From Thermodesulfobacteriota bacterium (GTDB lineage: Bacteria > Desulfobacterota > Desulfarculia > JACQYL01), in assembly GCA_963675595.2 (NCBI GenBank), contig CAXXLZ010000002.1, positions 3,104,001 to 3,168,000 of the forward strand: 64,000 nt of DNA, written 5' to 3'. The position numbers were made by a program, and so were the translations under genes. This document shows positions 1-50,938 of this stretch, in pieces; position 1 is the first letter of the stretch, and each line of letters opens with the position of its first letter. Under the pieces are notes generated by a model. The model made no database searches. It worked only from the letters and a program-made list of their open reading frames with translations, and was not told the origin of the DNA.

Positions 1-2973
1 ATTGAGAAGTTCGGTGATTCGGCGAAGGCTGGTTTCCGTTTGCTTACGTTGAGTGACGTCGATCGCCAATTCGAAACGGACAAGCCGGCCATCGGGCCAT
101 TGAATAGCGCGATCCGTGATATCGTAATCAGCACGGGTGACCGGATTGTGAAACTCCCACCGGTGAGGCCGTGGGGAATCCTTTCGAATAATCTCGTTTG
201 TACAGAACTCACAGGGCGAAAGTCTTTTCTGCAACGCCTTGAAACAAACTGCGCCGACGATATCCTTACCGAAAGCATTCTTGGCCGCCTTATTGGCGAA
301 AAGTACCTCATAATTGTTCATGTCGGAGACGTAAATGATTTCGTCGATGCTGTCGAAAATCGACAGGAGTTGAGCACGCTCCAATCTCAGGCTTTCTTCG
401 AATCGCTTGAGAGGTCCGACATCCGTAAAGGCGATGACCACGCCGGAAGATTCGCTCTCGCCGATTCGATAAGGCAGTACCCGCATCAGAAGCCAGTGGC
501 CCGAATCCGTCCGGCATTCCGTTTCAAGGGCCTTACCCGTATCGATGACCTGGCGCGCGGCGGCCACCGGGTCGATGTCGATCAATGTGTGAGACAGATG
601 AGACAAGGGGCGATTGAGATCACTTTCCTTGATGCGGTAGACGTTGCGCAACTCCGGAGTGAACCGGCGTATATCGAGGTTTTCGTCCAAGAATAAGGTC
701 GCGATGCGTGTAGTGGACATCAAGTTGTCCAAATCATTGGTGGTTTCCGTAAGTTCAATGATTTTGGATTGATACTCCGCGTTGACCGTGTGCAATTCTT
801 CATTGACGGACTGTAATTCTTCGTTGGTGCTTTGAAGCTCTTCATTGCCGGCGAGCAGTTCTTCGTTGGTGGCCTGCAGCTCCTCATTGGAGGTTTCCAG
901 TTCCTCGATCGTGGCCTGCAAATTCTCTTTGGTGAATTGCAGATCTTGCTCCAGGTCGTAGATGCGCTGCTCGGCTTCCTTGCTGAGATCGAATTCGTTC
1001 ACCGACGCGGACGGGGTCACCTTTTGGTGGGGCGTCCCATCCTGAAGAAGGATCATCGCATTGCGTTCTTGTCCCTTTCTGTGAGGAAGCAGGCGAATAC
1101 GTATTTCCACAATTCGGCCGCCCTCGGAGCTTTCCAGGCGGACGTTCTTGTATCGAACCTCGCCGCCTCCGTGGAAGGCCTTTTGAAGCCCCGTGGACAG
1201 AGGAATGGCCAATTCCTTGGACACAACGCGCGTGATCTCGTTCTGCACGCGACCCGGCGGGAAACGGAGCAAACCGTCGGTGTTTCCCACAACATGCAAC
1301 AATTCCAGCCGCTCGTTCACCACCGCCGCAAATATGTTGAAATCGTCGGCCAGCATCTGCAGCAAATTCTCTTGGAGACGTTCCTCCTCACGTTCGCCGA
1401 GAATGCGAGCTCCGGGCTGTAATCGAGAATACGCGGCAGGAGCCACCGACGTTCTGAACGCCGGAAGCCGGACCGCGTCGGTCAAAGGGCGCTTACGCCC
1501 CCTTGCTCTGTATATCTTGAACTTGTGATGCAGGGGCTCGAACAATTCGCCCTGATCGCCGGGGGTTTCGCTTGTTCCCAACAAGAGCAGGCCGCCTGGG
1601 TGCAGGGAAAAGTTTAGGTAATCGATGATTTTTTTCTGAAGTACGGGCTGAAGGTAGATGAGGAGATTGCGGCAGCTTATCAGGTCGATGCTGGTGAACG
1701 GGGGATCTTTGATGAGATTGTGCTGGGCGAACACCACGATTTCTCTTATGGAACGATGAATTTGATAGCCGTCGTCCCGGTGAACGAAATATTTGGTCAA
1801 CAGGCCGCCGGGGAGGTCTGCCGTTATGCTCTCAGGATAGATCCCGTTTCCCGCGTACATTACGGCGTTTCGATCCAAATCCGTGGCGAATATTTTGATA
1901 TTCGGAGGATTCTCCATTCGGCTCTGACATTCTCGGGCCAGGATGGCAAATGTGTATGCCTCTTCTCCCGTTGAACAACCGGGCACCCAAAAACGGGCTT
2001 CGGCGTGGTTCAGCTTATTCAGAAGAGCAGGCAGATAAGTCTTTCCCAGAACCTCGAAAACCTCGCGATCTCTGAAAAAGCTGGTGACGCCGATTAGGAG
2101 CTCTCGATAGAGGGTTGTCAATTCCTCCGGCCGTGCTTCCAACATGCGTACGTATTCGCGAAGGTCCTTGGCCTGGTTCACCGTGATCCTTCGTTCGATG
2201 CGGCGTAATACGGTGCTCGATTTATAAAAGGTGAAATCGACCTTTGTCTGTTCCCTCAAGAGGGCGAATATCCTTGTCAAGCCGTCTTCGTCGGAAAGAA
2301 GCGCCTTGGGCCGATCGGCCGGTGCGCCGGTTCTGCGGACTGCAAAAGATACCAGTCGGCCGGGCATTTCTTCGGGAGGCAACACGATATCGGCAAGCCC
2401 TGTAGATATGGCGGCCCTCGGCATGCCGTCGAACTTGGCGGAGGCCTCGCTTTGCACCATCACCATGCCGCCTGCTTCCTTTACGGCGCGCACTCCGCGC
2501 ACGCCGTCGCTTCCGGTGCCCGATAGAATGACCGCGATGGCCTTGTCCCCCTGGTCCTCGGCCAAGGACATGAGAAATACGTCGATGGGCAGGTTGATTC
2601 CTTGATTGGGATCGAAATCCCTCAAGAGCAGCTTGCCGTGGAAGACGCTGAGTTGCTTGCGGGGGGGGATGAGATAAACGCTGTTAGGCTCGACGCGGAG
2701 GCCTTCCTCGGCCCGCAGTACGGGCATGGTCGTACGTTTGGAAAGCAGCTCCACCATCAGACTTTTGTAATCCGGAGATAGATGTTGGATGACTACGAAA
2801 GCCATTCCGGAGTCCGGAGGCATATGCGAGAAGAAAACGTCCAACGCTTCGAGACCTCCGGCTGATGCGCCGATGCCCACATAATAGAGGGGCTCGGGAA
2901 GCGATGCCGTGGTTTCAGTCTGCGGGCCTTCCGATTCAAGGCCTTCCGATTCAAGGACTTCCGTTTCGCGCAT
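1..2973 (-). CDS. CheB methylesterase-CheR methyltransferase-coiled-coil-PAS fusion (MAC1/CheBR type), 3' end off window
   Basis: Translated by hand from the minus-strand ATG at 2973: MRETEVLESEG...YYVGIGASAGGLEAL (CheB catalytic Ser motif), then VIQHLSPD. The CheR region has a WVPGCSTGEEAY-type motif and ISCRNLLIY. The heptad run EELETSNEELQATNEELLAGNEELQSTNEELQSVNEEL lies at ~770-930, followed by a PAS end DVTQRK. It is absent from the ORF track, consistent with no in-frame stop inside the window. Confidence 0.92.
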   Translation of the reverse strand, partial: MRETEVLESEGLESEGPQTETTASLPEPLYYVGIGASAGGLEALDVFFSHMPPDSGMAFVVIQHLSPDYKSLMVELLSKRTTMPVLRAEEGLRVEPNSVYLIPPRKQLSVFHGKLLLRDFDPNQGINLPIDVFLMSLAEDQGDKAIAVILSGTGSDGVRGVRAVKEAGGMVMVQSEASAKFDGMPRAAISTGLADIVLPPEEMPGRLVSFAVRRTGAPADRPKALLSDEDGLTRIFALLREQTKVDFTFYKSSTVLRRIERRITVNQAKDLREYVRMLEARPEELTTLYRELLIGVTSFFRDREVFEVLGKTYLPALLNKLNHAEARFWVPGCSTGEEAYTFAILARECQSRMENPPNIKIFATDLDRNAVMYAGNGIYPESITADLPGGLLTKYFVHRDDGYQIHRSIREIVVFAQHNLIKDPPFTSIDLISCRNLLIYLQPVLQKKIIDYLNFSLHPGGLLLLGTSETPGDQGELFEPLHHKFKIYRARGRKRPLTDAVRLPAFRTSVAPAAYSRLQPGARILGEREEERLQENLLQMLADDFNIFAAVVNERLELLHVVGNTDGLLRFPPGRVQNEITRVVSKELAIPLSTGLQKAFHGGGEVRYKNVRLESSEGGRIVEIRIRLLPHRKGQERNAMILLQDGTPHQKVTPSASVNEFDLSKEAEQRIYDLEQDLQFTKENLQATIEELETSNEELQATNEELLAGNEELQSTNEELQSVNEELHTVNAEYQSKIIELTETTNDLDNLMSTTRIATLFLDENLDIRRFTPELRNVYRIKESDLNRPLSHLSHTLIDIDPVAAARQVIDTGKALETECRTDSGHWLLMRVLPYRIGESESSGVVIAFTDVGPLKRFEESLRLERAQLLSIFDSIDEIIYVSDMNNYEVLFANKAAKNAFGKDIVGAVCFKALQKRLSPCEFCTNEIIRKDSPRPHRWEFHNPVTRADYDITDRAIQWPDGRLVRFELAIDVTQRKQTETSLRRITELLN

Positions 2974-15002: not shown

Positions 15003-15629
15003 ATGCGTGTGCCTGCAACCCAATTTCTCGATGCTCTGCTGTCCGTTGACCGTGTGAGGGCAAGACAAGTTTTGTCGGATTTGGAAAGCCACATTACACC
15101 ATTGGAACAAATAGATGGAATTATCGTGCCTTCACTGGATCGCTTGGGGCTGATGTGGGAAAAGGGCACGGCGGCGCTATCTCAAGTATATATGGCGGGA
15201 CGGATTTGCGAGGAACTGGTGGAGGAAATGCTGCCCCCCATGAGCCCGGACCGAAAAAGCCGGCCCAGAATGGCTGTCTCGGTATTGCACGACCATCATG
15301 GTTTGGGAAAACGGATCGTCTATTCCCTTGTCCGCGCCGGTGGATATGAGATTCTGGACTATGGACGAAGAACCGTGGATGAGCTTATTGAAATGATTGA
15401 AAGAGATCACATCGAAATTCTTCTTGTGTCGGTCCTGATGCTCCCGTCCGCCTTGAAGATCAGGGAGTTGAAACAACGCCTTGCCCGGAACCTGTCTTCA
15501 CAAACGCTCATTGTGGTTGGGGGTGCGCCTTTCAGGCTCGATCCCGATTTGGCTGCGGAGGTGGGTGCGGATGCAGTGGGTCGAGACGCATCCGACATCA
15601 TGGAGATCGCCCGGAAATTGGCCGACTAA
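15003..15629 (+). CDS. Cobalamin (B12)-binding domain protein (corrinoid protein: cap helices + Rossmann domain)
   Basis: His-on motif DxHxxG (DHHGLG), then SVLM and VGGAP. The N-terminal B12-binding_2-like cap reads LDRLGLMWEKG...LSQVYMAG. ATG 15003 follows AGGAG. Confidence 0.9.
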   Translation: MRVPATQFLDALLSVDRVRARQVLSDLESHITPLEQIDGIIVPSLDRLGLMWEKGTAALSQVYMAGRICEELVEEMLPPMSPDRKSRPRMAVSVLHDHHGLGKRIVYSLVRAGGYEILDYGRRTVDELIEMIERDHIEILLVSVLMLPSALKIRELKQRLARNLSSQTLIVVGGAPFRLDPDLAAEVGADAVGRDASDIMEIARKLAD

Positions 15630-15649
15630 TCAGCGAGGACCGTATTGAG

Positions 15650-16693
15650 ATGACGTCATTGCAGCGCTTATTGACTGCTTTGCAGCATAGAGAGCCGGAT
15701 CGTGCGCCCTATATGATGCTTGTAACCATGCACGGCGCCAAGGCGTTGGGTATGCCTATCAGAGAATATTTTTCCAAGGCGGAGCATGTGGTTGAAGGAC
15801 AACTCCTGTTACGCCGGAAGTTCCGACACGATGCGATTTACGCCTTCTTCTATGCTGCATTGGAAATCGAGCCATGGGGCGGGGAGGTGGTATTTACGGA
15901 TGACGGTCCTCCAAACTCCGGAAGGCCCTTCCTGGAGAGTCCCGGGGAGATTAGAGGACTCAAACCTCCGCGCGTGAGCGACTCCGAAAGTTTGAACAAG
16001 GTCTTGAGGGCGATTACACTGCTCAAGCAATCGGTGGGGGAGGACGCACCCATTTTCGGCGTGGTGATGAGCCCGTTTTCCCTCCCCGTGATGCAGATGG
16101 GCTTCGAGAACTACCTGAACCTGATGTATGAGGACCGGTCGTCCTTTCATCATCTTATGGAAGCCAATCAGGAATTTTGCGCATCCTGGGCAAATGCGCA
16201 ATTGGAGGCCGGAGCTGCGGGAATCGTCTATTTCGACCCTGTCTCGTCCCCTCAAATGATTCCCCGAAGCCTGTACCCGGAACTTGCTCATCCCATCGCC
16301 AAAAGAATGATCGCCGAGATCAAAGGACCCGTGGCCACGCACTTCGCTTCGGGAAGTTGTCTACCCATTCTGGAAGACGTTATCACCACAGGGACCATTG
16401 GTGTGGGGGTCAGTGCGGAAGAAGACCTGGGTTCTTTGAAATCCGTGTCTCGAGGAAAAATCACTCTCATCGGCAATCTGAACGGATTGGAAATGCGTCG
16501 TTGGACTCCTCAGGAAGCGGAGATCAAAGTGAAGAACGCTATCGCCAAGGCGGCGCGCGGCGGCGGTTTCATTCTGGCCGACAATCATGGCGAGATTCCC
16601 TATCAAGTTCCGGACGAGACACTGTCCGCCATAGCCGATGCGGTTGATAAATGGGGTCACTACCCTTTGGAGTGGGTCGCAGTTGAAAAATAG
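15650..16693 (+). CDS. Uroporphyrinogen decarboxylase / MtaA-CmuA superfamily protein (corrinoid methyltransferase-like, non-canonical Zn ligands)
   Basis: MT..QR...AL...EPDR.P start, VMSPFSLP, AQLEAGA, FDP, LIGNL, GGFILA...GEIP are typical of the UroD/MtaA TIM barrel; 347 aa. Confidence 0.88.
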   Translation: MTSLQRLLTALQHREPDRAPYMMLVTMHGAKALGMPIREYFSKAEHVVEGQLLLRRKFRHDAIYAFFYAALEIEPWGGEVVFTDDGPPNSGRPFLESPGEIRGLKPPRVSDSESLNKVLRAITLLKQSVGEDAPIFGVVMSPFSLPVMQMGFENYLNLMYEDRSSFHHLMEANQEFCASWANAQLEAGAAGIVYFDPVSSPQMIPRSLYPELAHPIAKRMIAEIKGPVATHFASGSCLPILEDVITTGTIGVGVSAEEDLGSLKSVSRGKITLIGNLNGLEMRRWTPQEAEIKVKNAIAKAARGGGFILADNHGEIPYQVPDETLSAIADAVDKWGHYPLEWVAVEK

Positions 16694-19600
16694 TCGGTGC
16701 GGTATCCTCATTTGCAGGAGTTTACGCCGAGAGATTGAGGCGGTCCTTGCTGCGACTGGCTTGGACGGCGTCGAAGTGCTCACCTGTCCGTGCGATTGCA
16801 GTCGTCCCAACCGGGAGAAGGGACTTTTCGACGAAATACTGCAAACCATTCCGATTCGTTTCGATCATGTGCTCACTTTGTCGACTCCTTGTGAAAAATG
16901 TACGCGGGAAGAATCAAACACTCTCGTCCGAAATCATGTGGTCGGCATGCCCTGTTTTTTCGAGTTATTTCTTCCAGGCGGACTGGTGAGCAAGTACTTG
17001 TCGGAAGGAGCCTTGTTGCTCATTCCGGGTCTGGTTGAGAATTGGACCGACAACGGCGGATGCTCGGGACTTGAGCATGCTCGCGGCCGGAAGTTCTTCG
17101 CAGGGACGATTACACGCCTGGTGCTTCTGGACACCGGTACGGAGGAACAAAGCCAAAGGCGGCTGATCGAGCTTGCCGCCGCCATGGGTCTTCCGTGGGA
17201 AATTGTGCCGGTGGGTTTGGATATGCTCCGCTTGAGAATTGAACGGCAGATTGAAGCATGGCGCCTGCAAGACCTTGAGTCGGCGGCGCGGGCGACGGCA
17301 TCCAGGGAGCAGCGCCACGACTATGCCATGATCTTTGACATGATGAGTCGTTTTGCCGGTCTCACCAGCGAGGAACAATTGATACGGTCCGTTCTTGACC
17401 TGCTTGAAGCTCTTTTCGCACCCGGACTGTTGGCCTACATGCCGTTTCATGACGGAAGGCCGGGATCGGCGCTCACGCATCCTCTCGATGCCCATTGTTC
17501 GCCCGCTTGGATCGAGCAGGCGGCGAAGCTGCATGGAAGTTACTCCTGGTCCGATTCCGGGGCCGGATTCATTGTGCGCTTGGGCAGGGAGAACGAGACC
17601 TTGGGCATCCTGCTGGTGGAGCAGCTCGCTCTGCCCGACTACCGGGAAGATTATCTTAACTTGACCTTGACGATTCTCCCCGCGCTTGTCCTGGGCGTGC
17701 TGAACTCACGGCATATCGAGCAGCTGAGGCGTTCTCAGACCATGCTTCAGGAGTCGGAACGTCTGGCATATGCTACGCTGCACTCCATCGGCGAGGGTGT
17801 GATCAGCACGGACAGTTTAGGGCGCCTGACAAATCTGAACCCTTCGGCTGTAAAACTCACGGGATGGAGCGCCGGCGAGGCGCTGGGAAGACCTGTCAAC
17901 GAAATCCTGCATATCGTCAACGCTGAAACACGAGCCGGAACGGAAGACCCGGTGGAGAGAGCGTTGAACCTGGGTCTCACCCTTGGTCCGGCCGAACACA
18001 CGTTGCTCATCACGCGGGACGGAACGGAGCGACGGATATCATACAGTTGTGCACCCATCGAAGACCTGGACGGCAATATTGTCGGGTCCGTGCTTGTCTT
18101 CCGGGATATGACTTCGGAGATTGAGACGAAGAATGCCCTCAAAGCGAGCGAGGCTCAATTTCGCCTTCTGGCTGAGAACATGGTTGATGTCATTTGGACC
18201 CTGGATACATCCGGGCGATTCACCTACGTCAGTCCCTCCGTGGAGAAGCTGCGCGGCTACACGCCTCGGGAGGTGTTGTCCCAATCCATCGCAGAGGCGC
18301 TGACCCCCGCTTCGTTCAAAAAAGTGGAGGAAGCCTTGGCCGCAGTCATGTCGCAGTTGTCGAACGGGTCAAATCCCTCCGTACTCGACTTCGGCGCCTA
18401 CCAATTGGAACAGCCCCGCAAGGATGGATCCACTGTTTGGACTGAAGCGCTGGTGCGGCCGCTTTTTGATAAGCACGGCGACTTCAGCGGTTTCTTGGGC
18501 GTCAGCCGTGATATCACCGAACGCAAACGAGTTGAAGAGGAGCGTAACAAACTCCAGGCCGACCTCGAGCAAGCTCGGAAGCTCGAAGCAGTGGGTCGTC
18601 TGGCGGGCGGTATTGCACATGATTTCAATAACATGCTCGGAGTGATACTGGGAAATACGGAGCTGGCCTTCGACCAGGCGGAACCCGGAGAACCGCTGTT
18701 TTCCGATTTGCGCGAAATTCAAAAGGCTGCCCAGCGCTCCGCGGATCTCACACGGCAACTCCTGGCCTTCGCCCGAAAGCAGACCGTTACTCCCAAGGCG
18801 CTGGATTTGAATGAAGCCTTGGAAGGCATGCTCAAGATGCTCAGGCGACTCATCGGCGAGGACATCGACTTGGCTTGGCTGCCGGGGAATCGTTTGTGGA
18901 AAGTTAAAATGGATCCGGCTCAACTGGATCAAGTCCTGGCCAATCTGTGCGTCAATGCCAGGGACGCCATTTCCGGGCCCGGCCGGATCACCATCGAAAC
19001 CATGAATATTACGTTGGACGAGGCCCGATATGAAGGACGGGCGGGCGTTTTGCCCGGCGAATACGTTCTCTTGAGTGTGAGCGACAACGGATGCGGCATG
19101 GATCGGCAGACCCTGGCCCATTTGTTTGAACCGTTTTTCACCACCAAAGGGGTCGGCCGGGGTACTGGTCTTGGATTGGCCACGATCTACGGCATCGTCA
19201 GACAGAACGGCGGATTCATCGACGTCGAGAGCAAGCCTGGCGGAGGAGCAACGTTTTCCATTTATTTTCCGAGACACGAACCTCGGGCGGAAGAATCCTC
19301 CCATGCCGAAACCGGGAGTCCGACGGAGCGCGGCAACGAGACCATTCTGCTGGTGGAGGACGAAGAAGCCATGCGGAACATGGCCAAGACCATGCTGGAA
19401 AGGCTGGGATACCGCGTCTTGCCCTGCAGAACGTCCGTGGAAGCGGAGCGATCGGCGCTGGAACACGCCGACGAAATCCATCTGCTCATGACCGACGTGG
19501 TCATGCCGGACATGAGCGGCAGGGAACTGGCCGAACGGCTGACGTCTCGCCATCCGAACATGAGAAGCCTTTTCACATCCGGGTACACGGCGGATGTCAT

Positions 19601-19727
19601 CGGTCGCCATGGGGTGCTTAACGAAGGCGTGCACTTCATACAGAAACCGTTCTCCAAAAGGGACCTGGCGGCCAAGGTGCGGGAAGCCCTTTCGGCAAGA
19701 GCCGGTACGGGCCGACGAGACGATTAA
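16683..19727 (+). CDS. Hybrid histidine kinase with N-terminal Cys-rich DUF1638-like domain, GAF-like segment, 2 PAS, REC
   Basis: The N-terminus ILICRSLRREI...CPCDC...CEKC...PCFFELFL...LLIPG..ENW...RLVLLDTG...MGLPWEIVPVGL resembles DUF1638. H-box AGGIAHDFNN; C-terminal REC. TTG start overlaps the upstream gene's 3' end. Confidence 0.9.
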   Translation: MKNSRCGILICRSLRREIEAVLAATGLDGVEVLTCPCDCSRPNREKGLFDEILQTIPIRFDHVLTLSTPCEKCTREESNTLVRNHVVGMPCFFELFLPGGLVSKYLSEGALLLIPGLVENWTDNGGCSGLEHARGRKFFAGTITRLVLLDTGTEEQSQRRLIELAAAMGLPWEIVPVGLDMLRLRIERQIEAWRLQDLESAARATASREQRHDYAMIFDMMSRFAGLTSEEQLIRSVLDLLEALFAPGLLAYMPFHDGRPGSALTHPLDAHCSPAWIEQAAKLHGSYSWSDSGAGFIVRLGRENETLGILLVEQLALPDYREDYLNLTLTILPALVLGVLNSRHIEQLRRSQTMLQESERLAYATLHSIGEGVISTDSLGRLTNLNPSAVKLTGWSAGEALGRPVNEILHIVNAETRAGTEDPVERALNLGLTLGPAEHTLLITRDGTERRISYSCAPIEDLDGNIVGSVLVFRDMTSEIETKNALKASEAQFRLLAENMVDVIWTLDTSGRFTYVSPSVEKLRGYTPREVLSQSIAEALTPASFKKVEEALAAVMSQLSNGSNPSVLDFGAYQLEQPRKDGSTVWTEALVRPLFDKHGDFSGFLGVSRDITERKRVEEERNKLQADLEQARKLEAVGRLAGGIAHDFNNMLGVILGNTELAFDQAEPGEPLFSDLREIQKAAQRSADLTRQLLAFARKQTVTPKALDLNEALEGMLKMLRRLIGEDIDLAWLPGNRLWKVKMDPAQLDQVLANLCVNARDAISGPGRITIETMNITLDEARYEGRAGVLPGEYVLLSVSDNGCGMDRQTLAHLFEPFFTTKGVGRGTGLGLATIYGIVRQNGGFIDVESKPGGGATFSIYFPRHEPRAEESSHAETGSPTERGNETILLVEDEEAMRNMAKTMLERLGYRVLPCRTSVEAERSALEHADEIHLLMTDVVMPDMSGRELAERLTSRHPNMRSLFTSGYTADVIGRHGVLNEGVHFIQKPFSKRDLAAKVREALSARAGTGRRDD

Positions 19728-35396: not shown

Positions 35397-38300
35397 ATGA
35401 TGAAATTTAGGCTGCAAGACTTGATCGGCATCGATCATTTTCAGAACCTGCAGGACAGGTTGAACAAAATCTATTCCTTTCCATCATCTATTATCGATAA
35501 TGAAGGCAATATTTTAACAGCCACGGCCTGGCAGGATATTTGCCAAAAGTTTCACAGGAAAAACAAGGAATGTGAGCGAGAATGCATCAAGAGCGACCAG
35601 TATATTCTTGATCATCTTCATGAGGCGAGCCCCGCCGTGAGTTACCGATGTCCACATGGCTTGGTGGATAACGCTTCGCCCATCATTATAGATGGAGTTC
35701 ATTACGGGAATTTCTTCACTGGACAATTCTTTCTTGAAGAACCGGATCTGAGCTTTTTCAGAACTCAAGCCAAGAAGTATGGGTTCCCGGAAGAAGCCTA
35801 TCTTGAGGCTGTTAAAAAGGTGCCCATTTGGACCCGGGAACAATTGAATAACTATCTATTTTTCATCAAAGGGCTGATTTCGGTCATTATTGAAAGTGCT
35901 TTAAAGACACTCAAGGAGAAGGAAAGTCTTAAGCAGATTCAGAAACGGGAGCATCGCTACCGATCAATATTAAAGGCCGCCATGGATGGTTATTGGCGAA
36001 CTGATGTTAATGGTCGAATTTTGGAAGTCAACGAAGCTTACTGCAAAATGAGCGGATATTGCGAAGACGAACTGTTGACTATGAGTATTGCTGATTTTGA
36101 GTATTTTGAGACTCCGAAACTTGTGACCGAGCATATGCAGAAAGTCGTGTCGACAAGTTACGATCGATTTGAATCCAAGCATCGCCGTAAAGATGGAACA
36201 ACATTCGATGTCGAGGTCAGCATTCAATACCGTCCGGAAGAAGACGGACAATGCGTTTGTTTTCTTCGGGACATAACAGATCGAAAGCAAGCCCAGGAGG
36301 CGGTGCGCAAGCAAAGAGATCACGCCCAAAGAATACTGAATACGGTTCAAGCCATCATCGTCGCATTAAATAGAGAAGGCCGTGTAACTTTGATCAATCC
36401 GAAGGGCTGCCGATTGCTCGGTTATAGTGAAGACGAAATCTTGGGCCGACATTGGTTTTCTGAATTTCTCCCACAGCCGGACGGAATGGAGGATGTGTAT
36501 CCTTTCTTTTTGAGACTTGTTGCCGATGAAATTGAAGCGGCGGAGTATTTCGAAAACCCTATTGTCACTCGAAAAGGCGAGTTTCGGCAGATTGCATGGC
36601 ACAATGCATTGATGTATGACGAAAACGGGACGCTTATCGGGGTCCTGAGCGCCGGGGAAGACATCACTGAGCGCAAGCGTGCCGAGAAGAAACAGAAAAA
36701 GCTGGAGGCTCAGCTGTCGGACGCCATGAACATAGCCGATCTTGGACATTGGGACTACAATGTCGAGAACGATTTATTCAAATTTAATGACCAATTCTAC
36801 AGACTATTTCGTACCACGGCCGAACAGGCCGGGGGATATCTTATGTCATCGGCGGAATATGCCAAAAGATTTGTCCACCCGGAAGACAGGGATCTGGTTG
36901 GAGAAGAAATCCGTAAATCCGTGGAGACATCCGATCCCAACTTCAACAGCCGGCTTGAACACAGGATCATTTATACCGATGGCGAAGTCGGTTACATCTC
37001 CGTCAGATATTTCATCGTTAAGGACGACCATGGGAAGACGGTTAAGACCTACGGGGTGAATCAGGACATCACTGAGCGAAAGCGGGCCTTCGATGAAATC
37101 AAGAAAGCAAATGAAAGAATGCAATTAGCGGCTGATGCCGCGCATTTTGGCATCTGGGATTTTGACATCAAAGAAAATCGACTCGAATGGGACGATTGGA
37201 TGTTTCGGCTCTACGGTATGAGCCGTGATGACTTCAGTGGTGCTTACGAAGCTTGGCAGGCGGGCGTTCATCCGGATGATCTGGAACGGAGCTCCAAAGA
37301 GGTGGAACAGGCTTTGCGTGGGGAAAAGGAATTCGACACGGAGTTTCGCATCGTCCGGCCGGACGGCACAATCCGCCATTTGATTGCGCATGCCGTCGTC
37401 TCCAGGGATCTCGACGGAACTCCCCTCCATATGACGGGCGTCAACTATGACATCACCCAGCGCGTGGAAGCGGAAGCGGCTTTGCGGGAGAGCGAGAATC
37501 GTTTCCGCACCATCTTCGACCACGCCGCCGTGGGTGTGGTGCAGGTGGATTCCAGAAGCGGCCGATTCGTCAAATTCAACCAGAAGTTCCGTGACATCAC
37601 GGGCTTTTCGGATGAAGAGCTTTCTGCTTTAAGATTTCAAGACATTACCCATCCCGAAGACGTGGCGTCCGATACGGCGAATCTGACTCGACTGGTGGCG
37701 GGGGATATCCGGACCTACGCACTGGAAAAGCGTTACATCCGAAAGGACCATTCCGTCGTTTGGGTCAGAGTCACCGTATCGCCCACGTGGGCCGCCGGCG
37801 AGGAACCCGGATCTCACATCACGATTGTTGAAGATATCACCGAACGAAAATCCGTGGAGGAGGTGCGAGACCGATTGCAGGCGCAGCTCGTTCAGGCGCA
37901 GAAAATGGAATCGGTGGGTCGTTTGGCCGGGGGGGTGGCCCACGACTTCAACAATATGCTAGGCGTAATCCTGGGCTCCGCGGAAATGGCGTTGGACGAG
38001 ACGAGCCCTGCTGATCCGCAGTATGCCGACCTGAAGGAAATCCACAAGGCGGCTAAACGTTCTTCCGATCTTACAAGACAGCTCCTGGCCTTCGCGCGAA
38101 AGCAGACGATTTCTCCCAAAGTCCTCGACCTGAACGGTACCGTGGAAGGCATGCTCAAGATGCTCAGACGCCTCATCGGCGAGGACATCGTCTTGTCCTG
38201 GTTGCCGGGAAGCCGCTTGTGGAGGATCAAAATGGATCCTTCCCAAGTGGATCAAATACTGGCCAATCTGTGCGTGAATGCGAGGGATGCTGTTTCGGGG

Positions 38301-39053
38301 ACGGGTAGGGTCGTCATCGAAACCAAGAATATTGCCTTGGAGGAGGCCCAATGCCCCGAACGGAACGGCTTCCTGCCCGGCGAATATGTCCTGTTGAGTG
38401 TGAGCGACAACGGCTGCGGCATGGACCGGCAGACCCTGGCCCATTTGTTCGAACCGTTTTTCACCACCAAAGGGATCGGCCAAGGCACGGGCCTGGGATT
38501 GGCTACGATTTACGGTATCGTCAAACAGAACGGAGGATACATCGACGTAGAAAGCGAGCCGGGCAGAGGAACAACATTTTCCATTTACTTTCCGAGAAAC
38601 ATATCTCAGGCGGATACCCCCGCCGATGTAAAAACCGGAAGTCCGGCCGAGCGCGGCCACGAAACCATTCTGCTGGTGGAGGACGAAGCAGCCATGCTGA
38701 ACATGGCGAAAACCATGCTGGAAAGGCTGGGATATCGTGTTTTGCCCTGCAGAACGGCCGTCGAAGCGGAGCGATTGGCGATGGAACACGCCGGCGAAAT
38801 CGATTTGCTCATAACCGATGTGATCATGCCGGATATGAACGGCAAGGAACTCGCCGAACGGCTCACGTCTCGTTACCCGAACATGAGCAGCCTTTTTACA
38901 TCCGGCTACACGGCGGATGTCATCGGTCATCATGGAGTGCTTAAGGAAGGCGTACACTTCATACCGAAGCCGTTCTCGAGAAAGGACTTGGCATGCAAGA
39001 TACGTGACGCTCTTTCGACGCTCCCCTCTTCTTCTCGTCGACAAAACGATTGA
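35397..39053 (+). CDS. Hybrid histidine kinase with N-terminal PocR-like ligand-binding domain and multiple PAS
   Basis: The N-terminus WQDICQKFHR...CIKSD...YRCPHGLVD.ASPIIIDG.H.GNFFTGQFF is typical of PocR; AGGVAHDFNN; REC. Confidence 0.93.
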   Translation: MMKFRLQDLIGIDHFQNLQDRLNKIYSFPSSIIDNEGNILTATAWQDICQKFHRKNKECERECIKSDQYILDHLHEASPAVSYRCPHGLVDNASPIIIDGVHYGNFFTGQFFLEEPDLSFFRTQAKKYGFPEEAYLEAVKKVPIWTREQLNNYLFFIKGLISVIIESALKTLKEKESLKQIQKREHRYRSILKAAMDGYWRTDVNGRILEVNEAYCKMSGYCEDELLTMSIADFEYFETPKLVTEHMQKVVSTSYDRFESKHRRKDGTTFDVEVSIQYRPEEDGQCVCFLRDITDRKQAQEAVRKQRDHAQRILNTVQAIIVALNREGRVTLINPKGCRLLGYSEDEILGRHWFSEFLPQPDGMEDVYPFFLRLVADEIEAAEYFENPIVTRKGEFRQIAWHNALMYDENGTLIGVLSAGEDITERKRAEKKQKKLEAQLSDAMNIADLGHWDYNVENDLFKFNDQFYRLFRTTAEQAGGYLMSSAEYAKRFVHPEDRDLVGEEIRKSVETSDPNFNSRLEHRIIYTDGEVGYISVRYFIVKDDHGKTVKTYGVNQDITERKRAFDEIKKANERMQLAADAAHFGIWDFDIKENRLEWDDWMFRLYGMSRDDFSGAYEAWQAGVHPDDLERSSKEVEQALRGEKEFDTEFRIVRPDGTIRHLIAHAVVSRDLDGTPLHMTGVNYDITQRVEAEAALRESENRFRTIFDHAAVGVVQVDSRSGRFVKFNQKFRDITGFSDEELSALRFQDITHPEDVASDTANLTRLVAGDIRTYALEKRYIRKDHSVVWVRVTVSPTWAAGEEPGSHITIVEDITERKSVEEVRDRLQAQLVQAQKMESVGRLAGGVAHDFNNMLGVILGSAEMALDETSPADPQYADLKEIHKAAKRSSDLTRQLLAFARKQTISPKVLDLNGTVEGMLKMLRRLIGEDIVLSWLPGSRLWRIKMDPSQVDQILANLCVNARDAVSGTGRVVIETKNIALEEAQCPERNGFLPGEYVLLSVSDNGCGMDRQTLAHLFEPFFTTKGIGQGTGLGLATIYGIVKQNGGYIDVESEPGRGTTFSIYFPRNISQADTPADVKTGSPAERGHETILLVEDEAAMLNMAKTMLERLGYRVLPCRTAVEAERLAMEHAGEIDLLITDVIMPDMNGKELAERLTSRYPNMSSLFTSGYTADVIGHHGVLKEGVHFIPKPFSRKDLACKIRDALSTLPSSSRRQND

Positions 39054-43580: not shown

Positions 43581-43609
43581 TTGACCTCGTCTTGTATAGA
43601 CGTTAAGCT
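43581..43609 (+). promoter_or_regulatory. Putative sigma70 promoter for the riboswitch leader
   Basis: TTGACC-N17-TAAGCT immediately upstream of the cobalamin aptamer. Confidence 0.7.
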
Positions 43610-43614
43610 GCTCG

Positions 43615-43775
43615 ACAAATGTTGAAGGAGCCCTAACGGGCTGGACGGGGAAGACGGTGTGAATCCGTCACGGTCCCGCCGCTGTAAACGGGGACGAAAG
43701 CCGCAAGGAAGCCACCGATGATCGGGAAGGCGCGGCGAGTAGGCCGATCCGGAAGTCAGAAACCCGCCTTCAACC
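43615..43775 (+). ncRNA. Cobalamin (B12) riboswitch aptamer
   Basis: Conserved elements in order: GGGGAAGACGGTGTGAATCCGTCACGGTCCCGCCGCTGTAA ... GCCAC ... GGGAAGGC ... AAGTCAGAAACCCGCCTT. GTTGAAGG pairs with CCTTCAAC as P1. Lies upstream of a TonB receptor. Confidence 0.92.
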
Positions 43776-43829
43776 GAGAGATCCGTTTTGGCCTGCGCGT
43801 ACTACAGGCTCAGCGGTGCCACTCCTTTG

Positions 43830-44002: not shown

Positions 44003-44243
44003 GCTTGAACAACGGGCACATACGAATCGCGGTGGCGGAAGACCGGGACGTCGCGTACGGCGAACCGGTGTTCCGCATCGATTCACTTCAAGTCGCCCGT
44101 GACGTTCATGTCGAAGCCGGAGGCGCAGCCCGGCGCTCCCCATGGTCCGGGCGAATCCTCTGTTGTCGCTGTGTTGTGGTTGAGGACGTTTGTCTTGAGT
44201 TGAACCGCCCATGAAGGGGGCACCCATGAAGGAGGAAAGCGCC

Positions 44244-46379
44244 GTGAGAAAGGGAATGCAGGGATTCATCAACCGGACGATGCTGCTCGCATCCATGCTG
44301 TTCATGTTGTTTGGACTTTCGCTCGCATCCGCCGTGTACGCGGAAGAAACCCGGGAGGAAGGCGTTTCGAAACACGTAACCTTGGCCCCGGTGGTGGTCT
44401 CGGCCACCAAGACCGAAGAAAACACCATGGAGGTGCCATTTTTCGCGACGGTGATCACCCGGGATGATTTTGAAAAGATGGGGGCCCAGACCATCGAGGA
44501 AGCGCTGCGCAGCGTGCCGGGCCTTCAAATCGGCACCCAGGGCAACGCCTATCCGCACATCGAGGTACGAGGTTTCCGAGACACCAAGGACCTGGCCGTG
44601 CTCATCGACGGCATCCCGTTCCGGCAGGTCAACGGGTCGGCGGACTTCACCATGCTGCCTTTGGGCATCGTGGAAAGGATCGAATTCATCAAAGGGCCCT
44701 CTTCGTCCATTTGGGGCCGAGGCGCCGTTGCCGGAGTGCTGAACATCGTCACGAAACCGGACGACGTGTCCAAACTGCAGGCCAAAGTGCAGGCCGGCGG
44801 CGGCAGTTTCGGTACGTTTCGCGGAGACGGACGCGGGATTCTGCCGTACGAAGACGGCTACCTCATGTTGAACGTGGGCGGGTCCATCAGCGACGGTTTC
44901 CAGGACGGCACGGACCGGGACGCCGGCAATGTGCTGCTGCAACTGTCCCACAACTTCACCCGCAAGTTCGGTGTGGAGGCTCAATATCTCTTTTCCAGCG
45001 TGAATGCGAATCGTGGTTCCATTATTCCTCTGATTGACGGGGAACCCGCATACGGAGTGGAGGTGGACGACAATTTCGGTATCGACGACGCGAAATATGA
45101 CGGTCAATATCATTCCCTCACCGTATCACCCAGGCTGGAACTGCTCCCCGGTCTGGTGCTGAAAGACAGCGCCTCCGTGACGCATTTCGACCGTTTCGCC
45201 ACCGGAGGCATCACCATTACCCCCACGACCAGGACCAAAGGGTGGTGGGAAACGGACTCTGCGCAGACAAGCGTACACAACGACCTGAATCTGACCTGGA
45301 ATCAGGCCTTCGGAGGATTCGACAACACGCTGCTCGTCGGCAACTATCTCGAATTCGGGGATGAGGAGCAGAAGAGTCCCAGCTATTCCGGCGCGCCCAC
45401 CTACGGTCCTCCGGACTGGCAAACCCCGCTCAGCAACGTGGACAATCCCGCCAAAGGAAACAAGGGCGCCACAACCCGGAGCGACTTCGACCAAACCATT
45501 GTGAGCTTCTATATCCAGGACCGCATCGAATACGGTCCCCTGTCGTTGTTGGCCGGTGTGCGATATGATCATTTCGACGAAGAGCTGCGCCGGTCCAACC
45601 AGGACGTTGTTGCGGAACAGTCCGACAGCGCCTGGAGCCCCCGCTTCGCGGCGGACTGGAACTTCTATCGCGGGGAAAAGACCCAACTGGCCCTCTTTGC
45701 CAACTATGCCGAAGGCTTTCGGACCCAGTTCCCTTCTTTGAGCACGAAAAACGGCGTGACGTTACCGAACCTGCTGGATCCCGAAGAAACCGAAAGCTAT
45801 GAAGGTGGCTTGAAGGTAACGGCCCTGGACGGAAACCTCTTCGGCCAGATCGGGGTCTTCAGAACCGAAAAGAAAGGACCGCGCTCCTTCCGCACCAGTG
45901 AGGACGATTTTCTCTTCACCAACGCCCGCACTCGGGTGGACGGCGTGGAAACCGAAGTTCGTTATCGCTTCAATGAGATGTTCAATCTTTGGGCGCATTA
46001 CGCCTATCACGACGCGCACTATCTCGAATTCAAGGATTCCAGCGGAAACTCCTTCGAGGGTTACCGGGTCCGTATGTCGCCTCGGCATATCGCCGGCGCG
46101 GGTGCGAATTTCTTCTACCAGGGGTTCAACTGGAACGTGTCCTGGAACTACACGGGAAACCGGAACCTGCGTGACAATACGGTGGACGAGCCTCAAAACC
46201 TGCCGTCGTACAACGTGGTCAATACGGCCATCGGGTATACGTTCCTCAAGTACGAGATTCAGTTCGTGGTCAACAACCTCTTCGACGAGTACTACATTTC
46301 CGACGATTTCTCGTCCCAGGAGGCGGGCTGCGCCGGAGCTCCCCTGAACTTCTTCGTTTGGCTGAAAGCCGAATTCTAG
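44244..46379 (+). CDS. TonB-dependent receptor (cobalamin-riboswitch regulated; BtuB-like role likely)
   Basis: Signal peptide, TonB-box/plug (VVVSATKTE, ALRSVPGL, IEVRG, VLIDG, IERIEFIKGP-like, GAVAGVLNIVTK), NLFDEYY, terminal Phe (WLKAEF). GTG 44244 has an AGGAGG RBS (ORF track start 44211). Confidence 0.95.
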   Translation: MRKGMQGFINRTMLLASMLFMLFGLSLASAVYAEETREEGVSKHVTLAPVVVSATKTEENTMEVPFFATVITRDDFEKMGAQTIEEALRSVPGLQIGTQGNAYPHIEVRGFRDTKDLAVLIDGIPFRQVNGSADFTMLPLGIVERIEFIKGPSSSIWGRGAVAGVLNIVTKPDDVSKLQAKVQAGGGSFGTFRGDGRGILPYEDGYLMLNVGGSISDGFQDGTDRDAGNVLLQLSHNFTRKFGVEAQYLFSSVNANRGSIIPLIDGEPAYGVEVDDNFGIDDAKYDGQYHSLTVSPRLELLPGLVLKDSASVTHFDRFATGGITITPTTRTKGWWETDSAQTSVHNDLNLTWNQAFGGFDNTLLVGNYLEFGDEEQKSPSYSGAPTYGPPDWQTPLSNVDNPAKGNKGATTRSDFDQTIVSFYIQDRIEYGPLSLLAGVRYDHFDEELRRSNQDVVAEQSDSAWSPRFAADWNFYRGEKTQLALFANYAEGFRTQFPSLSTKNGVTLPNLLDPEETESYEGGLKVTALDGNLFGQIGVFRTEKKGPRSFRTSEDDFLFTNARTRVDGVETEVRYRFNEMFNLWAHYAYHDAHYLEFKDSSGNSFEGYRVRMSPRHIAGAGANFFYQGFNWNVSWNYTGNRNLRDNTVDEPQNLPSYNVVNTAIGYTFLKYEIQFVVNNLFDEYYISDDFSSQEAGCAGAPLNFFVWLKAEF

Positions 46380-47254: not shown

Positions 47255-48469
47255 ATGGTCGTGCTGTGCGCCTTGGCTGCGACGTGGGGATGCCGACCGG
47301 CGCCCAAGGATGATGTGGAACTGACCTGGGCCGTGAATCAGCACGAAACCCGTTCGGACGCCGTGACTCAGTTTGAACGGGAGAACCCGGGCATCCACGT
47401 CCGTATCCGACCCATCAGCGATCCCAGGCAGCTCTTTTTGCAGAGCCTTTTCGGCGACGCTCCGGACGTGATCACTTTTTTTCAGGCGGATTTCTTTCAG
47501 AACTTCGCCGTGAACGGACTGCTGCGGCCCTTGGACTCGAAGGATTACGAGCCCTGGCCGTTCTATGCCGGGTTGAAGGACTACTGCTTCCGGCGGAAGG
47601 ATGGAGCCCTCATGGCGCTGCCCCAGGTGGCCTATCCGTATGTGCTTTATTTCAATCCGGATTGGGTTTCTCGAGAAAAGGCCGCGACGGTCCACACCTG
47701 GGAGGACCTCGGACTCTTGGCAGGCTCCGTAGATCCAGGGCGAAACAGCGCGGGAAAGAAGGTCTTCGGCCTGGACATCCAGAGCGACGCCATCTGGTTC
47801 CTCACCTGGTATCTTCAGAGAGGAGGCCGGTTGTTTCGGGAGGACGGGGAAAAACCGGCTTTGGACCGACGCAAGGCGGTGGCGACCCTGGAGGCCATGC
47901 AACAATGGCGGTCCGTTCCGGGGTTGGTTCCCGAGCCCGGCGATCGGCTGAATCTGCCCTCCAAGGGGTCGAGTCAAGGCGTTTTGGGCAGCCTGTTCTT
48001 GCAGGGGCGAGCGGTTTTCTACTGGTCGGGCAGCTGGAAAATCTACGACTTCGTCCATCAGAACCGGGTGCGTTGGGGTGTTCTTCCTCTGCCCGCCGGT
48101 CCGGCCAACGATTTGACCATCCTGGGGTGCAACTCCTTTGGAGTGTGCTCCCGATCCGCCCATCCCAAGGAGGCGGAACGGTTCGTTCGTTATCTGTCCG
48201 GCCTGAAGGGACAGGAGCGCCACGCGCGGCATTCGATTTTCATGCCCGCCAATCCCGCGTGCCCCGTTCCCGGTGAATACTCGGTATTGAAGGATCAGAT
48301 CGGCCGAGCCCGGACGTTGGAATACGGCTCCGGGTTCAACGAAGCTCGGATGAAACACGCCGTGGAACAGATGCTGGAAGCCCACCGGCTGGGGTTCGTG
48401 GGGGCCGAAGCGTCCATTGATCGACTGATGCGGGTTCTTTCGCAGGAATCTACAGGTCCGCGGCCATGA
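47255..48469 (+). CDS. ABC transporter solute-binding protein (family 1, carbohydrate/CUT1-type), probable lipoprotein; start uncertain
   Basis: Hydrophobic leader ending TWGC; FERENPGIHVR, GDAPDV, YVLYFN, FLQGRAVF..SGSW, WGVLPLP, HPKEAERFVRYL. Confidence 0.85.
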   Translation: MVVLCALAATWGCRPAPKDDVELTWAVNQHETRSDAVTQFERENPGIHVRIRPISDPRQLFLQSLFGDAPDVITFFQADFFQNFAVNGLLRPLDSKDYEPWPFYAGLKDYCFRRKDGALMALPQVAYPYVLYFNPDWVSREKAATVHTWEDLGLLAGSVDPGRNSAGKKVFGLDIQSDAIWFLTWYLQRGGRLFREDGEKPALDRRKAVATLEAMQQWRSVPGLVPEPGDRLNLPSKGSSQGVLGSLFLQGRAVFYWSGSWKIYDFVHQNRVRWGVLPLPAGPANDLTILGCNSFGVCSRSAHPKEAERFVRYLSGLKGQERHARHSIFMPANPACPVPGEYSVLKDQIGRARTLEYGSGFNEARMKHAVEQMLEAHRLGFVGAEASIDRLMRVLSQESTGPRP

Positions 48470-50866: not shown

Positions 50867-50938
50867 AATAAAAAATTCTTCTCTATGCTTTCTTCAAGCC
50901 CGGCAACGGTTGTTGCGGCGGGAAATTTGGATGATGGT

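Follow-up and report, generated by a model that had tools for sequence, protein, structure and literature searches.

A putative B12-based sensory input cassette combining a corrinoid protein, a URO-D/MtaA-family protein and DUF1638-GAF* signalling proteins

Described relatives and organization of the locus

The closest described counterparts of the gene pair discussed in this study are MtaC/MtaA, MtbC/MtbA and MtsB/MtsA from methanogens, which share the same two folds and the same pairing of genes, with MtsA/MtsB constituting a two-protein system that operates without a separate methyltransferase I (MT1). A different parallel is found in GAF domains, whose role as sensor modules for tetrapyrroles and ligands is established. 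In phytochromes, cyanobacteriochromes and DosS/DosT, this fold heads kinases and GGDEF proteins as it does in our case, although in the cassette the tetrapyrrole would reside on a separate carrier protein. As parts of regulators, B12-binding domains are known from CarH/LitR, AerR/PpaA and the photocobilins, where they are fused to or directly bind the regulator and where light is the signal, whereas these systems contain neither the enzyme partner nor the DUF1638 and GAF* domains of the cassette. A relation of DUF1638 (PF07796) to corrinoids emerges from reports on the stand-alone proteins PGA1_c13340 (Phaeobacter inhibens) and SPO2162 (Ruegeria pomeroyi). The genes of these small proteins adjoin that of a B12-binding protein, and a corrinoid-dependent reaction requires them, with methionine synthase or glycine-betaine demethylation being served (PMC5764234, PMC12478193). 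In P. inhibens, the DUF1638 protein is genetically tied to corrinoid-protein function (PMC5764234). Unlike these stand-alone proteins, the DUF1638 domain of the cassette is fused to GAF* and to signalling outputs. The AmzR preprint (10.1101/2025.05.05.652248) and the photoglobin paper (PMC8717448) concern other systems. We found no published description of the cassette in the literature searched, in line with an earlier annotation of this DNA (the original prediction), which knew of no characterised system with such an architecture.

The cassette is located at positions 15003-19727 on the + strand of the analysed stretch of 64,000 nucleotides (the window). Its three genes are present where the original prediction had placed them. 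They encode a corrinoid protein of the His-on type, a member of the URO-D/MtaA family and a hybrid histidine kinase, and contain the following features:

15003..15629, + strand: stand-alone, MtaC-type, His-on corrinoid (cobamide-binding) protein, 208 aa (Pfam, ribosome-binding site, gene call)
15650..16693, + strand: URO-D/MtaA-family protein of the sensor-linked subfamily, 347 aa (PF01208, homologue alignment, quick tree)
16683..19727, + strand: soluble hybrid histidine kinase, 1014 aa (Pfam, homologues, database gene call)
16683..17297, + strand: DUF1638 domain with four conserved Cys (homologue profile, sub-cut-off PF07796 match, model)
17298..17747, + strand: GAF*, a specialised GAF domain (fold match of model residues 206-355)
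17778..18530, + strand: two PAS domains (Pfam PAS_8 381-435; PAS/PAS_4/PAS_9 507-631; P0003 numbering)
18594..19274, + strand: HisKA and HATPase_c transmitter (Pfam HisKA 653-715, HATPase_c 759-879; P0003 numbering)
19344..19682, + strand: REC, C-terminal receiver (Pfam Response_reg 903-1015, P0003 numbering, 58.5 bits)

The corrinoid gene starts at ATG 15003, which is preceded by an AGGAGA ribosome-binding site, and a gene call of the same 208 residues is contained in the protein collection. It is followed after a gap of 20 nucleotides by the URO-D gene, whose end (stop codon) overlaps by 11 nucleotides with the kinase gene if the latter is initiated at TTG 16683. The reading frame of the kinase extends upstream to ATG 16638, but the TTG agrees better with homologues and with the database gene call (P0004, 1014 aa). 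The tight arrangement claimed initially is thus reproduced, and by this spacing the three genes are translationally coupled. The surroundings form a signalling island with hybrid kinases, MCP, CheW-REC and REC-GGDEF proteins and, as originally stated, none of the 19 neighbouring ORFs scanned around the cassette encodes a methyltransferase I or C1 protein. Scans for promoters and terminators at the locus gave no signal above shuffled sequences. The genome harbours five RamA/RACo genes, all away from the cassette. Within the same window, a cobalamin riboswitch is found together with a TonB-dependent receptor and an ABC transporter, which suggests that corrinoid uptake matters to the organism.

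Features of the encoded proteins

The corrinoid protein passes the gathering cut-offs of Pfam B12-binding (PF02310, 55.8 bits versus 32.1) and of the B12-binding_2 cap (PF02607, 37.7 bits versus 23). It contains the stretch HDHHGLG, and an alignment of 19 homologues reveals D97, H99 and G102 of the DxHxxG element as well as S143 and G173 as invariant and G174 as nearly so, matching the pattern DxHxxG ... SxL ... GG which we take to define base-off/His-on binding. The protein was thus correctly described as a stand-alone His-on corrinoid protein. Its best solved matches are 1y80, MttC (7xcn) and MtmC (3ezx), and it scores below the NCBIfam cut-offs of TIGR02370 (69.6 versus 215.3), MtbC (54.3 versus 350) and MtaC (41.6 versus 450). 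A similar relationship is found for the second protein, which matches PF01208 over profile positions 2-346 of 346 (197.7 bits, cut-off 23.9) and stays below the cut-offs of TIGR01463 (103.2 versus 235.4), MtaA (93.2 versus 400), MtbA (72.9 versus 600) and HemE (TIGR01464, 61.5 versus 302.95), placing both members far below the curated thresholds for the MtaC/MtaA-type pairs.

The best solved match of the URO-D protein is MtaA (4ay7, E 1e-15), whose zinc ligands we assume to be a His-x-Cys ... Cys triad that activates the thiol acceptor. In the alignment with 4ay7, the Cys of HxC is located opposite a Ser and the distal Cys opposite His313, and three of the 19 homologues (L027, L033, L038) have another residue in place of the His, whereas C238 is present in only seven of them. 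Since the zinc triad is not kept, a thiol methylation as in MtaA appears unlikely. The motif DNHGEIP is nearly invariant across the same homologues, and the protein is 49-60% identical to 17 of bacterial and archaeal origin. In its own genome, the sensor-type URO-D is present in a single copy (575 bits, next paralogue 164), and a quick tree sets the subfamily apart as a group of its own, subtended by a long supported branch (SH-aLRT 98). In a comparison of 50 cassettes, no other part is conserved to the same degree as the URO-D protein (mean pairwise identity 0.62, minimum 0.51), a finding that speaks for a functional enzyme or for a binder under very strong constraint. The term 'degenerate methyltransferase' used in the original prediction, although the zinc ligands of MtaA are indeed missing, is not supported in view of this pronounced conservation.

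In the kinase, Pfam identifies two PAS domains, HisKA (29.4 bits), HATPase_c (77.4 bits) and REC, the latter three each above cut-off, and its translation contains an 'AHDFNN' H-box. At the N-terminus, PF07796 is matched with 18.7 bits (cut-off 27) and at profile positions 78-158 only, but 70 of 73 family representatives match it at E<=0.001, one of them (L025) with 103 bits. With residues numbered from the TTG start, the four cysteines C11, C39, C70 and C92 are retained in 70, 70, 63 and 70 of these 73 representatives. The stand-alone DUF1638 proteins of the genome likewise have C11, C70 and C92 but carry a His at the position of C39, and stand-alone members of the family in general show the same three cysteines with either Cys or His at position 39. 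Homologue matches and common Cys pattern support the assignment of the N-terminus as DUF1638 despite the low score. The anticipated domain matches were thus obtained above cut-off for B12-binding and URO-D, whereas DUF1638 passes in homologues but not in the window protein, and the proposed Cys-rich, DUF1638-like input of the kinase is reflected in its four cysteines. A model of this domain (pLDDT 84.4) contains two alpha/beta lobes, for which no solved relative stands out (best Z 8.4, rmsd 5.1 over 166 residues; Foldseek TM <=0.42), the fold matches being of a generic two-lobed alpha/beta type only. The four genes for stand-alone DUF1638 proteins in this genome are found in mixed contexts, one of them adjoining a URO-D gene.

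The subsequent region of the window kinase gives no Pfam GAF match. Its model (residues 206-355) superimposes on the GAF domains of PDE5A (Z 16.2, rmsd 2.8 over 148 residues) and KdpD (Z 13.7), and a search of the Protein Atlas returned GAF-type clusters only (score 0.90). The sequence identity of GAF* to solved GAF domains does not exceed about 15%.

Conservation of the cassette and variability of its outputs

Loci were collected by a search seeded with the URO-D protein. Among metagenome loci with room for the neighbouring gene, the corrinoid gene is located directly upstream of the URO-D gene in 71/71, and a gene for DUF1638 and/or GAF* directly downstream in 58/58, with both domains fused in 44 cases, GAF* only in 11, DUF1638 only in two and a split arrangement in one. 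The cassette can thus dispense with DUF1638 in 11 of the 58 cases, whereas GAF* is present in 56, which does not support the proposal that it is DUF1638 that relays the signal. By these counts, GAF*, which had been overlooked, would be the more constant transducer. Of 18 loci in named genomes, 17 contain the corrinoid gene, which lies upstream in 16 of them and is convergent in L037, and 13 have the DUF1638/GAF* module directly downstream.

An equivalent linkage is observed when starting from the sensor. In 201 genomes of another phylum, both genes directly precede 11 of 13 full modules, the other two belonging to one lineage (L140/L141) with neither a corrinoid nor a URO-D gene nearby and with no sensor-type URO-D found in their genomes. 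Among 401 sampled genomes of the own phylum, all three module matches besides the window have both genes directly upstream. Conversely, the corrinoid/URO-D pair occurs without any DUF1638 or GAF* gene in four archaeal loci, in all of which it directly follows a gene for an Fe/Mn superoxide dismutase and in three also a DUF362 gene. Apart from this one archaeal lineage, the pair is followed by a signalling protein, which distinguishes it from MtaC/MtaA-type pairs. The trio is linked across at least ten phylum-level groups. It is a conserved and mobile cassette, encountered in numerous anaerobic bacteria as well as in some archaea. The distances of its four parts correlate (Mantel r 0.60-0.78 in 50 cassettes) and the parts were therefore inherited as a unit, a relationship that concerns co-inheritance and not binding.

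The outputs found behind the same input comprise HK, hybrid HK, GGDEF, EAL, HD-GYP, SpoIIE and a Cys/His tail, illustrating that gene linkage tracks the input and not the output. Among 26 flanking genes of 14 loci, which are unrelated, there is no gene for MT1, RamA or C1 metabolism, nor does a DNA-binding regulator or redox partner travel with the cassette. A complete system consisting of MT1, CP, MT2 and RamA is thus absent from these flanks and from the neighbourhood in the window, and the cassette is independent of metabolic genes. In these respects, the original prediction, which had anticipated a stable linkage of the trio, its fusion to different outputs and homologues outside metabolic operons, has held. 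RamA/RACo-type activases are found in 7/11 cassette genomes compared to 86/201 overall, which amounts to no clear enrichment, with the incompleteness of MAGs as a caveat.

A possible sensory mechanism and its alternatives

The described features make it likely that the cassette provides a sensory input, and the best overall explanation, to which we assign a probability of about 55%, is that its three genes constitute one self-contained sensory input cassette. In such a system, a dedicated MtaC-type corrinoid protein would hold the cobamide in a base-off/His-on state and the URO-D/MtaA-family enzyme would act on the protein-bound cofactor, most likely by methyl transfer from a small molecule to the cobalt or in the reverse direction. 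The N-terminal GAF* would read the state of the corrinoid protein by contact, with CH3-Co(III), Co(I) and oxidised Co(II) as candidates, aided by the four-Cys DUF1638 in most versions of the cassette, and in the version found in the window this read-out would set the activity of the PAS-PAS-HisKA-HATPase-REC hybrid kinase. The mutual binding of the proteins, the methyl transfer and the identity of the sensed state are inferred. Speaking against the explanation are the modules and pairs that occur on their own, the missing zinc triad, the limited co-occurrence with RamA/RACo-type activases and the sub-cut-off score of DUF1638 in the window protein. If the input is sensory, we tentatively favour a read-out of the methylation state as set by a methyl donor or acceptor, consider a read-out of the cobalt oxidation state in response to oxidants or redox stress as rather unlikely, and leave the remainder to other signals. 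In more general terms, and with a chance somewhat short of even, the cassette could be a 'catalytic' sensor of an undescribed kind, where the pair of enzyme and carrier turns the level of a small methyl donor or acceptor, or of a Co(I)-attacking oxidant, into a fraction of cofactor states (methyl-Co(III)/Co(I)/Co(II)), which GAF* and a metal-binding DUF1638 would read and pass to a fused phosphorelay, c-di-GMP enzyme or phosphatase. Gene transfer would have distributed such a cassette among bacteria and archaea.

A redox or oxidant sensor in the strict sense, which we regard as unlikely, would require O2, reactive oxygen species or nitrogen oxides to convert the corrinoid protein from its super-reduced Co(I) or its methyl-Co(III) state to Co(II), and GAF*/DUF1638 to recognise this inactive form, whereas the URO-D enzyme would only reset or trap the cofactor. 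Such recognition has a model in the reductive activators of corrinoid proteins, which bind the Co(II) form, and the idea would be in line with a possible Fe-S or Zn site at the four conserved cysteines of DUF1638, with the named carriers, which are mostly from lineages that we take to be anaerobes, and with the superoxide dismutase gene preceding the archaeal pairs. However, the latter is confined to a single lineage that lacks the sensor, the cassette contains no redox partner gene, and the top conservation of the URO-D enzyme would be left unexplained. The same enzyme, as most conserved and never-missing partner, would have no role if the cassette were to report on B12 supply by telling the apo corrinoid protein from its holo form, or one bound cobamide from another, a task that riboswitches in the same genome already fulfil. 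This option, although in accordance with the constancy of the stand-alone B12-binding protein and with the riboswitch and uptake genes in the window, thus appears improbable.

No more convincing is the assumption of a metabolic methyltransferase pair, akin to MtsA/MtsB or O-demethylases, whose expression is regulated by the signalling protein and which would thus be its target instead of its input. Both protein families are metabolic elsewhere, the archaeal pairs lack a sensor, and some members of the subfamily (Anaerolineae, Thermodesulfovibrio) are named 'MtbA' in source records. These carriers, however, are bacteria, where coenzyme M is not expected, the zinc site of MtaA is absent, the flanking genes contain neither a DNA-binding regulator nor MT1, activase or C1 genes, and the conserved neighbour is the input domain, with outputs that include kinases, c-di-GMP enzymes and a phosphatase. 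Finally, the cassette could sense light if a photolabile Co-C bond were cleaved as in CarH and the cofactor re-methylated by the URO-D enzyme in the dark. We deem this very improbable, even though B12-binding domains are proven photoreceptor modules in CarH and photocobilins (PMC10979010) and 8j2y is among the structure matches of the corrinoid protein. The latter reaches 29.2 bits with the CarH model, compared to a cut-off of 400, and many carriers originate from digesters, sediments and methanogen lineages according to record titles. In the aligned 19 homologues, W52 is not followed by the remainder of Wx9EH, the cap motif of CarH.

A sensory input cassette would most likely represent an undescribed route from the chemical state of a B12 cofactor to a cellular signal. 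If confirmed, it would define a widespread and unstudied sensory principle, in which signalling begins with organometallic B12 chemistry on a separate carrier protein, and provide a new type of input for two-component and c-di-GMP signalling in anaerobes. It would also assign a function to DUF1638 and to a large unannotated URO-D subfamily whose members are at present labelled 'uroporphyrinogen decarboxylase' or, wrongly, 'MtbA'. The small size and solubility of all its proteins make the system amenable to direct tests. A profile search at E<=1e-30 identified 1029 representative sensor proteins, and the partner enzyme comprises about 3860 clusters.

A putative signalling cassette and its linkage

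The window holds an intact member of a cassette that combines a corrinoid protein gene, a URO-D gene and a signalling gene bearing DUF1638, a specialised GAF domain (here termed GAF*) or both, with a hybrid kinase as output. Its three co-directional genes are located as in the original prediction, with ORFs, translations and Pfam domains in agreement:

15003-15629, + strand: gene 1, corrinoid protein with Pfam B12-binding domain and helical cap, both above cut-offs, carrying the motif HDHHGLG
15650-16693, + strand: gene 2, full-length URO-D-fold protein (Pfam URO-D, 197.7 bits)
from TTG 16683, + strand: gene 3, hybrid histidine kinase with two PAS, HisKA, HATPase_c and REC domains (Pfam)

An AGGAGA ribosome-binding site lies ahead of the ATG of gene 1, whose 208-aa gene call matches in the protein collection. 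For gene 3, the TTG at 16683 is favoured over an ATG at 16638 by homologues and the database gene call, leaving 20 nt between genes 1 and 2 and an 11-nt overlap of genes 2 and 3. Around the trio, signalling genes form an island (several hybrid kinases, MCP, CheW-REC, REC-GGDEF), in which, as had been claimed, no methyltransferase-I or C1 gene was found.

The linkage of the trio, which had been singled out for a survey, was checked by four independent samplings, two seeded with the DUF1638-GAF* module at the N-terminus of gene 3 and two with the URO-D protein, and it held in all four, with exceptions. A module profile run against 401 genomes of the window's phylum matched the DUF1638 part in four (G000, G230, G031, truncated at the edge of its contig, and G244, with a partial match over positions 38-268), with corrinoid and URO-D genes directly upstream in 3/3 foreign loci. 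The URO-D protein, compared with one genome per species, retrieved 18 loci at 42-59% identity from Lentisphaerota, Synergistota, Chloroflexota, Bacteroidota, Planctomycetota, Thermotogota and Pseudomonadota as well as from Methanobacteriota and Thermoplasmatota; 17 of them contain a corrinoid gene, which at locus L037 is convergent and downstream of the sensor, and 13 the module directly downstream. In metagenome contigs, where a URO-D alignment was used and the best 80 of 504 relatives were considered, the corrinoid gene directly precedes the URO-D gene in each of the 71 loci where the contig leaves more than 650 nt for it. Among the 58 of these best 80 with at least 1100 nt downstream, 44 encode a fused DUF1638-GAF*, 11 GAF* without DUF1638, two DUF1638 only and one a split form, whereas none lacks both. 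Finally, the module profile matched 14 of 201 genomes of another phylum, with URO-D and corrinoid genes directly upstream in 11 of 13 full modules. The constant partner of the corrinoid/URO-D pair is GAF* rather than DUF1638, and the occurrence of GAF* without DUF1638 does not support the proposed role of DUF1638 as the signal relay. At a further locus (L067, 6340-7853, + strand), the corrinoid and URO-D genes are followed by two DUF1638 genes in tandem, both stand-alone, on a contig that ends before a possible GAF* gene.

The four cassette parts show correlated distances (Mantel r 0.60-0.78, p 0.001), which fits their inheritance as a unit and is no proof of contact. A quick URO-D tree departs from taxonomy in placing Methanolobus and Methanospirillum among bacteria, a topology that points to a spread of the cassette by gene transfer.

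Genomic surroundings and exceptions

A predominance of homologues in metabolic methyltransferase operons, which the original prediction considered incompatible with a sensor, was not encountered: none of the 26 mutually unrelated genes flanking 14 cassettes encodes a substrate methyltransferase, RamA/RACo or a C1 protein. The source genome of the window contains five RamA/RACo genes, all away from the cassette. As in the second phylum such genes are present in just 7 of 11 cassette genomes (compared to 86/201 overall), neither dependence on this activase nor an obligate co-occurrence with RamA is evident.

Two kinds of exception count against a strict three-part machine. In four archaeal loci of one Methanomassiliicoccales-like clade (L031, L032, L042, L043), the pair is found without a sensor. 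There it directly follows an Fe/Mn superoxide dismutase gene in 4/4 cases and is also preceded by a DUF362 gene in three (not in L032); neither DUF1638 nor GAF* was detectable in these loci, and the small ORFs downstream of the pair have no Pfam match. Conversely, an orphan DUF1638-GAF*-GGDEF protein is encoded between a metallophosphoesterase gene and flgD:

L140, 985-2517, - strand: orphan DUF1638-GAF*-GGDEF gene
L141, 961-2508, - strand: orphan DUF1638-GAF*-GGDEF gene

Neither copy has a corrinoid or URO-D gene nearby, and their genomes yielded no URO-D of the sensor type; because of their identical synteny, both count as one bacterial lineage. A separate locus (L044, 5029-6990, + strand) contains a 654-aa open frame in which a divergent piece of URO-D (residues 22-232, 42% identity) is embedded; its neighbours encode REC-SpoIIE and histidine kinases, and a corrinoid gene was not detected.

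Properties of the cassette proteins

In the corrinoid protein, the residues of the cobalamin motifs D97, H99 and G102 (DxHxxG), S143 and G173 are invariant and G174 is nearly so, and its closest solved relatives are corrinoid proteins of methyltransferases. The URO-D-like protein has MtaA as closest solved relative (4ay7, E 1e-15) and scores far under the curated cut-offs for MtaA/CmuA, MtbA and HemE. It has lost the zinc triad of MtaA, with the distal Cys replaced by the nearly invariant His of the motif DNHGEIP, the Cys of HxC aligned to Ser and its His not invariant. The term degenerate methyltransferase used in the original prediction is nevertheless misplaced, as this protein is the most conserved part of 50 complete cassettes, with a mean pairwise identity of 0.62 (minimum 0.51), compared to 0.48 for the corrinoid protein, 0.30 for GAF* and 0.28 for DUF1638. 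In a quick tree, sensor-linked URO-D proteins from ten phylum-level groups cluster tightly together, separated by a long branch (SH-aLRT 98) from the paralogues of the window's genome, where the sensor-linked form is single-copy (575 bits versus 164 for the next paralogue). Public labels of its members read 'uroporphyrinogen decarboxylase (family protein)' or 'MtbA'. In two genome bins (L037, 5190-6229; L042, 6001-7028), the URO-D gene is broken across two frames, which a frameshift or an assembly error would explain.

The DUF1638-like input ascribed to the kinase is matched only weakly in the window protein itself (18.7 bits versus a Pfam cut-off of 27), but all eight homologues retrieved with residues 1-370 of gene 3 combine PF07796 with a kinase or GGDEF output. 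An AlphaFold model of the first 355 residues of the window protein (mean pLDDT 78.3) contains two domains, of which residues 206-355 are predicted to adopt a GAF fold (PDE5A GAF, Z 16.2, rmsd 2.8 over 148 residues; KdpD GAF, Z 13.7). Modelled alone, the DUF1638 half (pLDDT 84.4, pTM 0.83) consists of two alpha/beta lobes, and comparison with solved structures gave no outstanding relative (Z up to 8.4, Foldseek TM up to 0.42). Its residues C11, C39, C70 and C92 (TTG numbering) are conserved in 70, 70, 63 and 70 of 73 family representatives, and stand-alone DUF1638 proteins of the window's genome have three of the four Cys in common and a His at the fourth position. This conservation and the common Cys/His pattern make a metal site in DUF1638 likely. 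The four stand-alone genes (C2:2562401-2563312, 2356866-2357363, 3930834-3931406, 2492921-2493532) are found in mixed contexts, which include HemN-like radical SAM, Crp-type regulator, URO-D and nitroreductase genes.

A search of 1.84 billion representatives with the module profile yielded 1764 proteins at E<=0.001, of which 1029 remain at the stricter E<=1e-30, and in the best 150 matches (342-1479 residues long) the module is invariably located at the extreme N-terminus. As the original prediction had asked, this input is fused to different outputs. Pfam scans of 73 proteins (every second of 146 new matches) identified HATPase_c in 49, HisKA in 44, HisKA_2 in four and HWE_HK in three, besides REC (15), GGDEF (6), Hpt (3), EAL (1) and SpoIIE (1), and a related locus (L025) displays an HD-GYP output. 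Architectures without DUF1638 comprise GAF*-PAS-GGDEF, GAF*-GAF-HK, GAF*-HK and GAF*-PAS-HK, and seven such members are short GAF* proteins of 240-256 aa with a conserved Cys/His tail:

L050, L053, L059, L062, L074, L090, L093: short GAF* protein, gene directly after URO-D

Over its roughly 55 aa (LSGLLPICxxCKKIRDDxGYW...FSHGICxxC), this tail gave no Pfam match at E<=0.001; it probably represents an output domain of an uncharacterised, zinc-ribbon-like type. The constancy of the adjoining input domain in light of freely varying outputs is the main argument for assigning the corrinoid/URO-D pair to the input rather than to a regulated target.

A proposed corrinoid-state sensor

We hypothesize that the cassette acts as a corrinoid-state sensor, for which we infer binding, catalysis and the sensed state. 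The URO-D-like enzyme would modify the cobamide held by the carrier protein, most probably by exchanging a methyl group with a small molecule. GAF* would read the state of the carrier protein to control the fused output, and DUF1638 would usually assist this read-out. The sensory interpretation of the original prediction thus draws support from the linkage and the variable outputs, but not in its view of URO-D as degenerate. All parts belong to known families, namely MtaC-type corrinoid proteins, the URO-D/MtaA superfamily, DUF1638, GAF and two-component or c-di-GMP outputs. To our knowledge, no characterised system combines a corrinoid protein, URO-D, DUF1638, GAF and signalling outputs. In CarH, AerR and photocobilins, by contrast, the B12 domain is fused to or directly binds the regulator, the signal is light and an enzyme partner is absent. 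Against the CarH model, the window corrinoid protein scores 29 bits (cut-off 400). A full-text literature search, covering the main texts of articles, retrieved no description of the cassette and mentions of DUF1638 in only four papers, none of them in signalling. The cassette is real and most likely represents an apparently unpublished kind of sensory input. Outside support is limited to two reports on stand-alone DUF1638 proteins. In Phaeobacter (PMC5764234), such a protein and a RamA-like protein are both described as required for a methionine synthase that is split and corrinoid-dependent, and in Ruegeria (PMC12478193) one is reported to be induced along with corrinoid demethylases.

The window displays further features outside the trio. 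At 1-2973 (- strand), a large CheB methylesterase/CheR methyltransferase fusion with PAS_10 is truncated at the window start, and at 35397-39053 (+ strand) lies a hybrid histidine kinase whose N-terminal PocR sensory domain (157.7 bits) precedes several PAS domains. Further along, 24 kb downstream of the trio, positions 43609-43785 (+ strand) hold a cobalamin riboswitch (RF00174, 87.9 bits); TonB-dependent receptor and ABC transporter genes (44211-46379, 48466-52063) follow, and the region resembles a BtuB-like locus for corrinoid uptake.
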